This document shows positions 1 to 4,982 of a DNA stretch of 4,982 bases, piece after piece. The notes beneath the pieces were generated by a model. The model searched no databases. It was not told the DNA's origin and was given only the letters and a program-made list of their open reading frames with translations. Numbering within the stretch: position 1 is the first letter of the stretch; each line of letters begins with the position of its first letter. This DNA comes from a phage: the sequence record PZ049717.1. The stretch is one strand, 5' to 3'. Made by a program: the position numbers and the translations under genes.

Positions 1-1815
1 CAGCGCTGTGGTGAAGTGATCGGCGTGCTCAGCCTGCAGCACAGCGGCAAGCCACGGGCCTGGCATGCCGACGAAATCGCCTTCGCCGGTGAACTGGCCG
101 ATCAGTACGCGCAGGTACTGGCCAACCAGCAGCGCCTGAGTGCCACCCACATGCTCGGCCTGTTCCAGCGCGCAGTGGAGCAGAGCGCCAGCGCCTTCAT
201 CCTGGTGGACCGGGACGGTCGCGTGGAGTACGTGAACCCTGCCTTCACCGCCATCAGCCAATTCTCCGAGTCCGAAGTGCGCGGTCAGCGCCTGGCCGAT
301 CTCAAGGCTCTGGAAAACCTCGGAGAGCTGCTGTTCGACACCTCGTCGGTACTCGCCCACAGCAACAGCTGGCAGGGCGAGTTTCGCTCAAGGCGCAAGA
401 ATCTGGAGCCCTACTGGGGGCAGCTGTCGATCTCGAAGGTCTTCAACGACGACGGCATGCTCACCCACTACATCGGCATCTACGAGGACATCACCCGCAG
501 CAAGCTGGCCCATCAGCACATCGAGCGCCTGGCCTACACCGACAACCTGACCAACCTGGGCAATCGTCCTTTCTTCATCCGCAGTATCGAGGAGCGCTTC
601 GCCGCAGGCGCCGAGCCGAGGCTCTGCCTGCTGCTGGTGGACATCGACAACTTCAAGCGAATCAATGACAGCCTGGGCCACCAGACCGGCGACAAGCTGC
701 TTACCAGCCTCGCACGCCGGCTGCGCAACGGCCTCAGCCAGCAGAGCGTGCTGGCACGTTTCGCCAGCAACGAGTTCGCCCTGCTGTTCGATGACAAGGG
801 CCTGGAGGAAGGCATAAGACTGGCGGATCAGGTGCTGCGCATCCTCGACAAGCCACTGTTCGTCGACAAGCAGCTGATCAGCGTCAGCGGCTCGCTGGGA
901 CTGGCCTGCTCACCGCAACACGGGCGCGACCCGGAAACCCTGATGAAGCATGCCGGGCAGGCGCTGCACAAGGCCAAGGCGAACGGCAAGAACCAGGTGC
1001 AGATATTCACCGAAGCCCTGCATGCCGAGGCCAACTACAAGCTCTTCGTCGAGAACAATCTTCGCCGCGCGCTGCTGCAGAACGAGTTGGAGGTGTTCTA
1101 TCAGCCCAAGCTGTGCCTGCACACCGGTCGGCTGCAGGGGCTGGAGGCGCTGCTGCGCTGGAACCACCCGGAAAAAGGCATGATCCGCCCGGACCAGTTC
1201 ATCAGCGTCGCGGAAGAGACCGGGTTGATCATTCCGATCGGCAAATGGGTCGTTCGCGAAGCCTGCCGCATGGGCGTTACGCTGTCGGAACTGGGTCTGG
1301 GCAAACCCCAGATCGCCATCAACCTGTCACCCAAGCAGTTCTCCGACCCGGACCTGCTGAGCTCCATCGCGGCGATTTTGCTGGAGGAAAAGCTCCCCGC
1401 CGGGCAACTGGAACTGGAGCTGACCGAGAGCCTGCTGCTCGATGCCACCGAGGAAACCCGTCAACAGCTGATCGGCCTCAAGGCGCTGGGCCTGACCCTG
1501 GCCATGGACGATTTCGGCACCGGTTACTCCTCGCTCAGCTACCTGAAGAAATTCCCCATCGATGTGATCAAGATCGATCGCAGCTTCATCAAGGACATCC
1601 CTGACAACCAGGACGACGTGGAAATCACCTCGGCGGTGATCGCCATGGCGCGCAAGCTGCACCTCAAGGTCGTCGCCGAAGGCATCGAAACGCCGGAGCA
1701 GCTGAAGTTTCTCCGCCGACATCGTTGCGATATCGGCCAGGGCTATTTGTTCGACAAGCCGATCCCGGGCACCGGACTGACCGATGCCCTGCGCCGCTAC
1801 CCTCACTGGTGCTGA
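1..1815 (+). CDS. dipA: c-di-GMP phosphodiesterase, GAF-PAS-GGDEF(degenerate)-EAL architecture (DipA-like); 5'-partial, reading frame open from base 1
   Basis: Frame 1 is open from position 1 to TGA at 1813-1815; the GTG at 16 in the ORF track is not the real start. Translation shows the tail of a GAF domain (approx nt 1-140), a PAS-like segment (approx nt 160-510), and a GGDEF-like domain (approx nt 530-1010) whose signature is ASNEF (nt 763-777) instead of GG(D/E)EF and which ends ALHKAKANGKNQV. The EAL domain (approx nt 1050-1790) has the conserved motifs intact: EVFYQPK (EVF at nt 1090-1098), LLRWNHP, INLSP, ELELTES, DDFGTGYSSLSYL, KIDRSF, EGIETPEQ, QGYLF. High GC3 codon usage. Synteny with msrA supports the dipA (PA5017-like) name. 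Confidence 0.88.
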   Translation, partial: QRCGEVIGVLSLQHSGKPRAWHADEIAFAGELADQYAQVLANQQRLSATHMLGLFQRAVEQSASAFILVDRDGRVEYVNPAFTAISQFSESEVRGQRLADLKALENLGELLFDTSSVLAHSNSWQGEFRSRRKNLEPYWGQLSISKVFNDDGMLTHYIGIYEDITRSKLAHQHIERLAYTDNLTNLGNRPFFIRSIEERFAAGAEPRLCLLLVDIDNFKRINDSLGHQTGDKLLTSLARRLRNGLSQQSVLARFASNEFALLFDDKGLEEGIRLADQVLRILDKPLFVDKQLISVSGSLGLACSPQHGRDPETLMKHAGQALHKAKANGKNQVQIFTEALHAEANYKLFVENNLRRALLQNELEVFYQPKLCLHTGRLQGLEALLRWNHPEKGMIRPDQFISVAEETGLIIPIGKWVVREACRMGVTLSELGLGKPQIAINLSPKQFSDPDLLSSIAAILLEEKLPAGQLELELTESLLLDATEETRQQLIGLKALGLTLAMDDFGTGYSSLSYLKKFPIDVIKIDRSFIKDIPDNQDDVEITSAVIAMARKLHLKVVAEGIETPEQLKFLRRHRCDIGQGYLFDKPIPGTGLTDALRRYPHWC

Positions 1816-2971: not shown

Positions 2972-4750
2972 TCAAAACTGTGCGGCATCCAGCAGGTAGA
3001 GCGACTCGCTGCCGGCCTTGACTGACGCCGTAAGCGAGTGGATGCGCGGCAACATCCGGGCAAAGTAGAAACGCGCCGTGCCCAGTTTGCTCTGATAGAA
3101 ATCGCCCTCGCCCTGCTTCGCCAATGCCACCGCTGCCATGCGCGCCCACATGTAGGCGTACGCGGTGTAGCCGAACACGTGCAGGTACTCGACCGAAGCG
3201 GCGCCGATCTCGTTCGGATTGGCCTTGGCCTGATCGATCACCCAGGCGGTCAGCTCGTCCAGATTGTCCAGCGCAGCCTTGAGGGGCTCGGTGAACTCGC
3301 GCAGATCCGCACCGGCACTGGCGATGAATGCGCGGATCTCATCGACGAACGCCTGATACATGGTGCCGCCGCTGCCGACAATCTTGCGTCCGACCAGATC
3401 CAGCGCCTGGATGCCGTTGGTGCCTTCGTAGATCTGGGTAATACGGCAATCGCGCACCAGTTGCTCCTGGCCCCATTCGCGAATGAAGCCGTGGCCGCCG
3501 AACACCTGCTGACCGTGCACAGTGGTTTCCAATCCCATGTCGGTGAGGAAGGCCTTGGCCACCGGCGTCAGCAGCGCAACTTGCGCCTCGGCCCGCTGCC
3601 GTGCCGCTTCGTCATCGCTGAACTTGGCGATATCGAGCTGCAGCGCGACGTAGCTGGAAAACGCACGCCCACCTTCGTTCAAGGCCTTCATGGTCAGCAG
3701 CATGCGCCGTACATCGGGATGCACGATGATGGGATCGGCGGCCTTGTCCTGCGCCACCGGGCCAGTCGGGGCACGGCTCTGGATGCGCTCGCGAGCGTAC
3801 TCGATGGCGCTCTGGTAGGAACGCTCGCCAGTGGCCAAGCCCTGGATACCGACGCCCAGACGCTCGTAGTTCATCATGGTGAACATCGCCGCCAGACCCT
3901 TGTTGGGTTCGCCGACCATCCAGCCGGTAGCGCCATCGAAGTTCATCACGCAGGTGGCGGAGGCCTGGATACCCATCTTGTGTTCGATCGATCCGCAGGA
4001 CAGCGAGTTGCGCTCGCCCAGCGAGCCGTCGTCGTTGACCAGAACCTTGGGCACCAGGAACAGGGAGATGCCGTGCGAACCGGCCGGCGCATCCGGCAGC
4101 TTGGCCAGTACCAGATGGATGATGTTGTCGGTCAGGTCGTGCTCGCCACCCGTGATGAAGATCTTGGTGCCACTGACCTTGTAGGAGCCATCGGCCTGCG
4201 GCTCGGCCTTGGTGCGGATGATGCCCAGATCGGTACCGGCATGCGGCTCGGTCAGGCACATGGAACCGGACCAGACGCCGGCGTACATGTTCGGCAGGTA
4301 CTTCTGCTTAAGCTCTTCGCTGGCATGGGCGTAGATCGACAAGCAGGCGCCGGACGTCAGCATCGGATACAGACCGAACGCCAGGCTGGCGGAGTTCATC
4401 ATTTCCTCCACCTGCGCCGAGATGACCTTGGGCATGCCCATGCCACCGAATGCCGGGTCACCACCGACACCCACCCAGCCACCTTCAGCGTACAGCTGAT
4501 AGGCCTCGCGATAGCCGGCCGGTGTCGACACCGCACCGTCGTCCCAGCGGCAACCCTCTTCGTCACCACTGCGATTGAGCGGGGCGATGCTGTTGGCGGT
4601 GATCTTGCCGGCCTCTTCGAGGATCGCGTCGGCGGTTTCCGCGTCGACCACCTCGGCCAGGGCTGGCAGCGCCTGCCAGAGCTTCGGCGCATCGAAGACT
4701 TCATTCAGGACAAAACGCATGTCGCGCAGCGGCGCTTGGTAGTCAGCCAT
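2972..4750 (-). CDS. large acyl-CoA dehydrogenase (~592 aa; long-type ACAD with C-terminal extension, FadE/DmdC-like family)
   Basis: Long - strand ORF with high GC3 bias. Preferred start is the ATG at 4750-4748, giving MADYQAPLRDMRFVLNEVFD..., preceded by GAGGAA (4758-4763) 7 nt upstream; the ORF-track start at 4786 adds 12 residues with no RBS. Contains the ACAD catalytic-base region ITQIYEGTNGIQ (YEGT motif), FAD/substrate-fold blocks (CLTEPHAGTDLG, GTKIFITGGEHD, FGGHGF) and a ~130-aa C-terminal extension typical of the ~600-aa ACAD subfamily. Stop TGA at 2974-2972. Confidence 0.92.
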   Translation of the reverse strand: MADYQAPLRDMRFVLNEVFDAPKLWQALPALAEVVDAETADAILEEAGKITANSIAPLNRSGDEEGCRWDDGAVSTPAGYREAYQLYAEGGWVGVGGDPAFGGMGMPKVISAQVEEMMNSASLAFGLYPMLTSGACLSIYAHASEELKQKYLPNMYAGVWSGSMCLTEPHAGTDLGIIRTKAEPQADGSYKVSGTKIFITGGEHDLTDNIIHLVLAKLPDAPAGSHGISLFLVPKVLVNDDGSLGERNSLSCGSIEHKMGIQASATCVMNFDGATGWMVGEPNKGLAAMFTMMNYERLGVGIQGLATGERSYQSAIEYARERIQSRAPTGPVAQDKAADPIIVHPDVRRMLLTMKALNEGGRAFSSYVALQLDIAKFSDDEAARQRAEAQVALLTPVAKAFLTDMGLETTVHGQQVFGGHGFIREWGQEQLVRDCRITQIYEGTNGIQALDLVGRKIVGSGGTMYQAFVDEIRAFIASAGADLREFTEPLKAALDNLDELTAWVIDQAKANPNEIGAASVEYLHVFGYTAYAYMWARMAAVALAKQGEGDFYQSKLGTARFYFARMLPRIHSLTASVKAGSESLYLLDAAQF

Positions 4751-4757
4751 GGCAAGG

Positions 4758-4763
4758 TTCCTC
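4758..4763 (-). promoter_or_regulatory. Shine-Dalgarno (GAGGAA) for the acyl-CoA dehydrogenase
   Basis: The - strand reads GCGAGGAACCTTGCC-ATG, with GAGGAA 7 nt upstream of the ATG at 4750. Confidence 0.55.
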
Positions 4764-4842
4764 GCAAGACACTGGGTTGCAGCCACTGTGGGCCGTTTCC
4801 AGCGAGTCTAACCGAACAACCAGTACAGGATTAAGCGTCTTT

Positions 4843-4872
4843 TTATGACCAGATAGTTTTTTGCGGTCATAA
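4843..4872. promoter_or_regulatory. candidate operator: perfect 8-bp inverted repeat TTATGACC-N14-GGTCATAA upstream of the acyl-CoA dehydrogenase
   Basis: TTATGACC at 4843-4850 and GGTCATAA at 4865-4872 are exact reverse complements separated by 14 nt (AGATAGTTTTTTGC). The site is about 95-120 nt upstream of the ATG at 4750, in the 138-bp gap after the upstream gene's stop (4889-4891). Neither strand has a T-tract after the stem, so it is not a typical terminator. Confidence 0.3.
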
Positions 4873-4888
4873 GCGAACCGCTACAGCC

Positions 4889-4982
4889 CTAACGCGAATG
4901 GCCTGCCATACGCACTGCGCCGCGCCCGCTGCCATGCACCCGAACGCAATTGCGTCCGGCCTTCTTGGCGCCATACAGCGCC
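4889..4982 (-). CDS. 3' end of a gene for a probable GGDEF-domain (diguanylate cyclase-like) protein; only the last ~30 codons are in the window
   Basis: Reverse-strand translation entering from the window edge gives ALYGAKKAGRNCVRVHGSGRGAVRMAGHSR then TAG (4891-4889). ALY.AK..GRN.V is the characteristic C-terminal motif of GGDEF domains; compare ALHKAKANGKNQV at the end of the GGDEF-like domain in the dipA product here. The fragment is short and GC3 is only moderate, hence modest confidence. Confidence 0.4.
   Translation of the reverse strand, partial: ALYGAKKAGRNCVRVHGSGRGAVRMAGHSR

Follow-up and report, generated by a model that had tools for sequence, protein, structure and literature searches.

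A phased array of TGACC/GGTCA half-sites upstream of fadE2 in Stutzerimonas stutzeri, probably recognised by an orthologue of the TetR-family regulator PvrA

The window analysed here, the whole 4,982-nt stretch of sequence record PZ049717.1, carries on its minus strand (2972..4750) a gene for a 592-aa medium-chain acyl-CoA dehydrogenase with the Pfam domains Acyl-CoA_dh_N, _M, _1 and _C. Many Stutzerimonas stutzeri proteins share 99% identity or more with the encoded protein; an exact-sequence search gave no match for it, and these near-identical proteins served as its proxies. The top match among solved structures is 8PNG/8R1E (594-aa chain), with 1159 bits as against 675 bits for 8PNS (603-aa chain), and all three entries are among the structures solved for P. 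aeruginosa FadE1 and FadE2 (PMC11890623). Furthermore, the residues that tell FadE2 from FadE1, namely Met130, Glu296 and Gln303 (PMC11890623), are all found in the window protein. Because of the best match to 8PNG/8R1E and the presence of the three FadE2-specific residues, the gene is assigned as the fadE2 orthologue (PA0508, PP_0370).

Upstream of fadE2, and in the same orientation, lies the 3' end of a GGDEF (diguanylate cyclase) gene (4889..4982, minus strand), whose reading frame is visible and ends in a stop codon at 4891-4889; the intergenic region separating it from fadE2 is 138 bp. In three S. stutzeri loci (L082-L084) a 429-aa GGDEF gene is located between fadE1 and fadE2, within the gene order bioBFHCD, a small ORF, fadE1, GGDEF, fadE2, a convergent msrA, and a gene for a GAF-PAS-GGDEF-EAL protein, while the order in P. 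aeruginosa is fadE1, PA0507, fadE2. The P. putida group has the fadE1-GGDEF-fadE2 order of S. stutzeri, and other Stutzerimonas (L001, L002) and the P. fluorescens group have GGDEF-dehydrogenase-fadE2; the promoter array described below is kept whatever the gene order around fadE2.

Several other features of the window can be assigned. The 599-aa reading frame at its left edge (16-1815, plus strand) corresponds to the C-terminal two thirds of the 890-aa GAF-PAS-GGDEF-EAL protein (L082:12937-15609), and a 598-aa ORF opposite fadE2 (3038-4834, plus strand) is a shadow ORF of a GC-rich gene. The gene for the small RNA RsmY is matched at full length on the minus strand at 2643-2762 (Rfam RF00195, with 102 bits where the gathering score is 57). 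It sits between msrA and the 3' end of fadE2, with its terminator at 2666-2643. Approximately 100 nt upstream of rsmY, at 2862-2879, is a palindrome, TATAAG-N6-CTTACA, which we take to be GacA-box-like.

Within the intergenic region between the GGDEF gene and fadE2, positions 4843-4872 of the plus strand read TTATGACC AGATAGTTTTTTGC GGTCATAA, two perfect 8-bp arms that are 14 nt apart, exactly the TTATGACC-N14-GGTCATAA palindrome that a sequence-only reading of the window had picked out. The centres of the arms are 22 bp apart, and their TGACC/GGTCA cores 19 bp. The repeat is 17 nt from the GGDEF stop codon and 93-122 nt from the fadE2 ATG (4750, minus strand), close to the 95-120 nt given earlier.

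One explanation for such a repeat is that it is a chance palindrome without function, and simple counts lend this some weight. Perfect 8-bp inverted repeats with a spacer of 0-30 nt number four in the whole window, as compared to 3.55 +/- 2.3 in shuffled sequences, and when the 138-bp intergenic region is shuffled 5000 times, 190 of the resulting sequences (3.8%) have at least one. The exact repeat pattern with three or fewer mismatches occurs once where 0.01 occurrences are expected, in what is a post hoc test. Taken alone, the palindrome is weak evidence, barely above chance. The repeat is significant because it is conserved in orthologous promoters, and not by virtue of being a palindrome; its position-specific, phased conservation in dozens of species, with variable spacers, effectively refutes the chance explanation and leaves it a negligible probability. 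A second copy of the TTATGACC 8-mer is located at 2891-2898, in the rsmY upstream region, where it lacks a true partner arm and has just a CGTCAT 23 nt downstream; with approximately 0.15 copies expected in 5 kb, this copy is probably a coincidence.

Read on the minus strand, towards fadE2, the repeat forms the upstream part of a compact promoter region. The promoter-distal arm, H1 (4865..4872), reads TTATGACC, with its TGACC core at approximately -71..-67 from the predicted start, and the core together with the next base is TGACCG. It is followed by an A/T-rich spacer of 14 nt (4851..4864) that reads GCAAAAAACTATCT and contains a degenerate internal half-site, H1b (AAACT, 4855-4859, about -57), 4 nt from the promoter-proximal arm; the equivalent position in P. 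aeruginosa and the P. putida group holds a good half-site, as part of AGACT-N4-GGTCA. The promoter-proximal arm, H2 (4843..4850), reads GGTCATAA and has its GGTCA core at about -52..-48. A third half-site, H3 (AGACG, 4836..4840, about -42..-38), is positioned just upstream of the -35 position; in most species it is TGACC, and the gap separating it from the H2 hexamer is invariant at 4 nt.

The stretch from H3 to the -10 (4811..4835) includes the -35 hexamer and the element GGTTGTTCGGT, and its consensus over the whole stretch is CTATGTGTCgcAAAAGTTGTTgGGt. The -35 itself, TAATCC (4828-4833), is poor, with 2/6 matches to TTGACA, and the predicted -10, TAGACT (4805..4810), was assigned from conservation, TAnACT being the best-conserved element of fadE2 promoters. 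Transcription is predicted to start at approximately position 4798 of the minus strand, implying a 5' UTR of approximately 48 nt, and a GAGG Shine-Dalgarno sequence for fadE2 is found at 4760-4763. No promoter was called by a scan of 4650-4982 for the sigma-70 consensus, a result that fits an activator-dependent promoter. A good -10 paired with a poor -35 and preceded by conserved sites between -72 and -38 would correspond, as far as geometry can be deduced from the DNA, to the classic activator-dependent layout. A sigma-54 promoter with an enhancer-binding protein was also considered and rejected, as no GG-N10-GC was seen on reading the sequence.

To place these elements in an evolutionary context, 80 loci with relatives of the window protein were fetched, one genome per species, and 71 fadE2 promoters of Pseudomonas and Stutzerimonas, including those of the window, three conspecific loci, and P. 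aeruginosa, were anchored on the core RGTCAY-N4-YGACC-25 nt-TAnACT. Ten loci (L056, L064, L067, L068, L071-L073, and L077-L079) were left out; they carry a third paralogue, which lacks the array and has a different upstream gene, apparently for a membrane protein. A relaxed form of the repeat, RTGACY-N14-RGTCAY, has 43 matches in the 616 kb of fetched loci, and 37 of the 80 loci have it at the equivalent spot, approximately 125 nt before the orthologous ATG, with only six matches elsewhere. The upstream regions follow a rigid order, in which RGTCAY (H2) is followed by 4 nt, YGACC (H3), a conserved 25 nt, and TAnACT, and H2 is found at a fixed distance from the -10 in 66/71 promoters.

The distal half-site is more mobile. 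An nTGACY lies exactly 14 nt upstream of H2 in 52/71 anchored promoters, and in others the spacer between TGACY and H2 is 4 nt (9 loci), 24 nt (3 loci), 29 nt (5 loci), or 15 nt (1 locus); no TGACY was found upstream of H2 at any further spacer from 0 to 35 nt in the 71 promoters. The main spacers of 4, 14, and 24 nt differ in steps of 10 bp, one helical turn. For instance, the distal half-site is 24 nt from H2 in the Stutzerimonas relatives L002-L004 and 4 nt from H2 in L018 and L035, where the L035 form is GTGACCAATTGGTCAC. Promoters of the P. brassicacearum/corrugata type (L027, L045, and L047) carry a further TGACY-N4-RGTCA palindrome immediately before H1, and exact palindromes of this kind number eight in 771 kb of fetched DNA, all of them in the fadE2 promoter zone. 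The closest Stutzerimonas relative (L001) is without a recognisable H1, so H1 may be dispensable.

The boundaries of the array are equally apparent from the information content of 51 promoters with less than 85% mutual identity. Conservation sets in abruptly at the distal arm, rising from 0.08 bit/position in the 14 nt upstream of H1 to 0.94 in H1, and continues at 0.66 in the H1-H2 spacer, 1.54 in H2, 0.22 in the 4-nt gap between H2 and H3, 1.52 in H3, 1.35 from -37 to -13, and 1.8 in the -10 hexamer, before falling to 0.32 bit/position downstream of the -10. Thus, H2 and H3 are among the best-kept parts of the array, and only the -10 hexamer scores above H2. The spacer varies across lineages (AAAAATAACAAAAC, TATAAATACTTAAT, GAAATTGACTTACC, and the window's GCAAAAAACTATCT), although nearly every lineage retains 'AC' at its positions 8-9. 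Amongst the S. stutzeri loci the arms are identical, and substitutions are found in the spacer and in the H3-to--10 stretch of the -35 to -10 region. This latter stretch (4811-4835 in the window) is about as conserved in the 70 other promoters as the half-sites, with a diverged 5' part (CTTAATC...) that is common to the window and P. nitroreducens (L008). One possible role for the stretch is that of a second operator, for instance a repressor site within the promoter spacer.

These patterns bear on the earlier proposal that the repeat is a protein-binding operator in a promoter region, a proposal that had been staked beforehand on conservation of the half-sites in orthologous promoters. They are conserved in both Pseudomonas and Stutzerimonas, where their position is fixed, their spacing is helically phased, and covariation of the hairpin type is absent, so the operator reading survives and is supported by the comparison of promoter sequences.

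An alternative that the location immediately brings to mind is an RNA or DNA hairpin, either a terminator or attenuator of the upstream GGDEF gene or an mRNA-stabilising stem-loop, given that the repeat begins right after the GGDEF stop codon. On the transcribed strand a 9-bp RNA stem closed by a 12-nt loop is possible, and folding of the 66-nt region gives -17.1 kcal/mol (z = -1.77), but 10/200 shuffles fold as well. Unlike an intrinsic terminator, the stem is A/U-rich, with three G-C among the eight arm pairs, and has a long loop, and the sequence after it, AAAAAGAC, is a run of A with no U tract; a terminator scan makes no call, and an Rfam search of the intergenic region returned no match. 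Moreover, the repeat is kept in species where the upstream gene is another dehydrogenase that has its own canonical terminator ahead of H1, and an upstream-gene terminator of this kind comes before H1 in many species. Covariation between the arms is also absent, as the innermost pair occurs as T-G (21), C-A (6), T-A (13), and C-G (11), which is the expectation for independence. Because of the lack of covariation, the weak stem, and the absence of an Rfam or terminator match, the arms behave as independently read protein half-sites and not as a hairpin, which makes the hairpin explanation most improbable.

The c-di-GMP genes that flank fadE2 raise another possibility, that the H2-H3 segment, GTCATAAAAAGAC, is a site for the c-di-GMP-responsive regulator FleQ and links fadE2 to its GGDEF/EAL neighbours. 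The segment does resemble the FleQ consensus of P. aeruginosa, GTCaNTAAAtTGAC, and that of P. putida, GTCAaAAAAtTGAC (PMC8125075). However, the element is 13 nt, and not the 14 nt of a FleQ box, in 71/71 promoters, most species lack an A-rich centre in it (for example, GTCATGAGCTGAC), and the window has AGAC in place of TGAC. A FleQ site would also leave H1 unexplained, and P. aeruginosa keeps the array without an adjacent GGDEF gene. Finally, PP_0370, PP_0369, and acyl-CoA dehydrogenase are absent from the main text of both FleQ regulon papers, PMC8125075 being one of them. A role for FleQ at this site is accordingly quite improbable.

The sequence-only reading had left the regulator without a name, a point on which it is overtaken by the literature, which places the TetR-family protein PvrA (PA2957) on the orthologous PA0508 promoter with the motif CGGTCA/TGACCG (PMC7293031). 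In P. aeruginosa, PvrA gives a 19-fold ChIP-seq peak at PA0508 and shifts the PA0508 promoter in EMSA; furthermore, full induction of PA0508 on phosphatidylcholine and palmitate needs PvrA, deletion of pvrA lowers PA0508 expression, and palmitoyl-CoA enhances DNA binding by PvrA (PMC7293031). The motif derived by MEME is 5'-CGGTCA-3' (PMC7293031), of which TGACCG is the complement, and palindromic pairs of PvrA motifs with 4-18 bp between sites have been described before fadE and eight other genes (PMC10085694).

The window repeat matches this description in several respects. H1 contains TGACCG exactly, H2 contains TGGTCA, which agrees with the motif at 5/6 positions and is not CGGTCA, the two are 14 nt apart, and the promoter is that of the orthologue of a confirmed PvrA target, PA0508. 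The promoter bound by PvrA in P. aeruginosa has a homologous site of its own, AGACC-N14-GGTCAC-N4-TGACG, the PA0508 upstream region (L081) reading AGAAGACC-GATATAGACTTAAT-GGTCAC-GACG-TGACG, then 25 nt, and TAGACT. GGTCA occurs once in the 272-bp PA0508 intergenic region, inside the array. Against the PvrA reading, H3 in the window is AGACG and not TGACC, and the published PvrA motif is a low-information 6-mer.

It is conceivable that the operator is real and is read by some other regulator, such as a RutR-like TetR protein or an undescribed factor that co-regulates fadE2, in which case the PvrA ChIP and EMSA signal at PA0508 would come from elsewhere in the promoter or from a weak overlapping site. 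The half-sites, and the 4-nt form of L035 (GTGACCAATTGGTCAC), match the E. coli RutR consensus TTGACCAnnTGGTCAA (PMC2475637), so the half-site is not unique to PvrA, whose motif is only 6 nt long. On the other hand, the sole GGTCA of the 272-bp region being in the array means that the PvrA motif match must fall there, and RutR governs pyrimidine catabolism, which is functionally unrelated to fadE2. Another regulator at this site is, on this evidence, rather unlikely.

The pvrA gene itself supplies evidence on both sides of this issue. In P. aeruginosa (L085), the TetR gene at the PA2957 position, identified by synteny with acpP, encodes a protein 100% identical to the chains of the PvrA structures 7Y0Y, 7Y0Z, and 8HJB, with an N-terminus that was joined from two frames in an assembly that has frameshifts; 7XAQ is a PvrA-related PDB entry with DNA. 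PvrA-like proteins of 89-100% identity are encoded at 80 metagenome loci, and their first 60 residues are near-invariant. Four of these proteins belong to one 90%-identity cluster of 2968 members, among them a protein of Stutzerimonas marianensis with 90% identity to PvrA and the same recognition helix, indicating that the protein is present at the genus level. No pvrA was found within 10 kb at the acpP-syntenic Stutzerimonas loci L086-L088, where a nitrile hydratase cluster follows tmk.

The leader of pvrA has a conserved TGACY-N4-RGTC between a CATAAT-like -10 and the ATG, and 35 of 36 matches to this pattern in 396 kb of pvrA loci fall within the 50 nt before the pvrA ATG. The element is located 10-40 nt before the pvrA start in L089-L168 (in P. 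aeruginosa, for example, at L085:17722-17735). Its presence suggests that pvrA may be autoregulated from the leader, and as a TGACC-type element beside pvrA it is what PvrA autoregulation predicts, which counts against a different regulator of fadE2. Yet the pvrA promoter served as the negative EMSA control in two papers (PMC7293031 is one of them). That PvrA gave no shift on its own promoter sits awkwardly with the conserved TGACC-N4-AGTC in the leader, and favours a different protein as the reader of such elements.

Taken together, the inverted repeat would provide the outer pair, H1 and H2, in a phased TGACC/GGTCA array that acts as the upstream activating region of S. stutzeri fadE2 with a PvrA orthologue (PA2957) as its binder, a reading to which we assign a probability of roughly 65%. 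PvrA is probably the protein on this site, its presence being established at the level of the genus. The half-sites would be positioned at approximately -72 (H1), -57 (H1b), -52 (H2), and -42 (H3), and because they are roughly one helical turn apart they would face the same side of the DNA. The sequence-only reading regarded the geometry as that of one dimeric factor. This is doubtful, as arm centres 22 bp apart exceed the reach of one TetR-family dimer and the repeat is just two of at least three to four phased half-sites; because the H1 and H2 cores, at 19 bp, are too far apart for one TetR dimer, we infer two or more. At least two PvrA dimers may thus occupy H1, H1b-H2, and H3 cooperatively, in a presumed stoichiometry and occupancy, and would either recruit RNA polymerase to the weak -35 or stabilise it there once fatty acyl-CoA accumulates. 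A spacer of 14 nt is not typical of a lone TetR dimer, and the multi-dimer model is a proposal built on this spacing.

One feature of the array that calls for an explanation is the movable distal half-site, at 4, 14, or 24 nt, next to an invariant H2-H3 core. It could reflect a need of fadE2 activation for a phased nucleoprotein assembly of several dimers, with either a TetR-family activator working as a dimer of dimers with a movable auxiliary site or a second, undescribed factor on H1 that aids PvrA. We offer this only tentatively, as a possibility with the odds against it, and such an architecture is undescribed for PvrA.

The control of fadE2 by PvrA in P. aeruginosa is already published, and the present case is not a new kind of system. 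What is new is the S. stutzeri instance, the family-wide conservation of the element, and the movable distal arm among phased half-sites. The S. stutzeri fadE2 promoter thereby gains a probable regulator and mechanism, and the PvrA-fadE2 link is probably ancestral to Pseudomonas and Stutzerimonas. The cis-element, three to four phased half-sites at a fixed distance from a TAnACT -10, is sharper than the published 6-mer, and the anatomy of the array could be turned into a position weight matrix for predicting the acyl-CoA-responsive regulon across the family. It is also a possible guide for engineering fatty-acid-inducible promoters in Pseudomonas chassis strains.

Comparison with known operators sets the array apart from the other fatty acid regulators that might be expected upstream of a fad gene. 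The PsrA box (G/CAAAC-N2-4-GTTTG/C) is likewise the target of a TetR-family, fatty-acid-responsive protein, and is found in the fad gene cluster (PMC11890623). PsrA, however, is a repressor whose box has a different half-site and lies over the promoter core, whereas the window array lies upstream of and over the -35, which fits activation. There is no G/CAAAC-N2-4-GTTTG/C in 4751-4888. A true PsrA box, TTTCAAACGCCTGTTTGA, is found instead before the neighbouring fadE1, both in P. aeruginosa (L081:1700-1790) and in S. stutzeri (L082:6480-6530), and the earlier statement that the repeat is neither a PsrA box nor a FadR site holds. A GntR/FadR-type site was set aside, as was an LTTR box (T-N11-A), and P. 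aeruginosa is reported to lack a fadR homologue (PMC7293031). The P. aeruginosa fadE1 gene is also preceded by TGACCGAGCGGTCG, a near-perfect palindrome located 10 nt before a TTGACA -35; this palindrome is absent in S. stutzeri and is distinct from the GGTCA at -394 of PMC11890623.

The RutR box of E. coli, also a TetR-family operator, has TGACC/GGTCA half-sites identical to those of the window, and its TGACC-N4-GGTCA arrangement is the geometry of a single TetR-family dimer (PMC2475637). A palindrome of this RutR type, with the 4-nt spacer, occurs exactly in the fadE2 promoters of L035 and L018. As a description of the window repeat, a single-dimer palindrome was rejected, since the half-sites match but the spacer is 14 nt, and the position 4 nt from H2 is only AAACT. 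The two systems differ further in their ligands, uracil or thymine for RutR and presumably acyl-CoA here, with fadE2 belonging to beta-oxidation.

The closest counterpart of the window array is the PvrA-bound PA0508 promoter of P. aeruginosa, which shares with it the succession of a GACC-type half-site, 14 nt, GGTCAY, 4 nt, a GAC half-site, and TAGACT. The 14-nt spacing is within the 4-18 bp range published for PvrA targets, and placement upstream of and over the -35 fits the reported role of PvrA as an activator. The two promoters differ in which half-sites are well formed. In S. stutzeri the outer arms make a perfect 8-bp repeat and the internal AAACT and the AGACG of H3 are degenerate, whereas PA0508 has a degenerate outer arm, AGACC, and a good internal pair, AGACT-N4-GGTCA; the upstream gene also differs, being a GGDEF gene in the window and PA0507 in P. 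aeruginosa. Inverted-repeat arms too far apart for one dimer are a feature of long TetR operators that are bound by two dimers, such as QacR IR1, and the long inverted repeat of the window, with arms too distant for a single dimer, resembles operators of this type.
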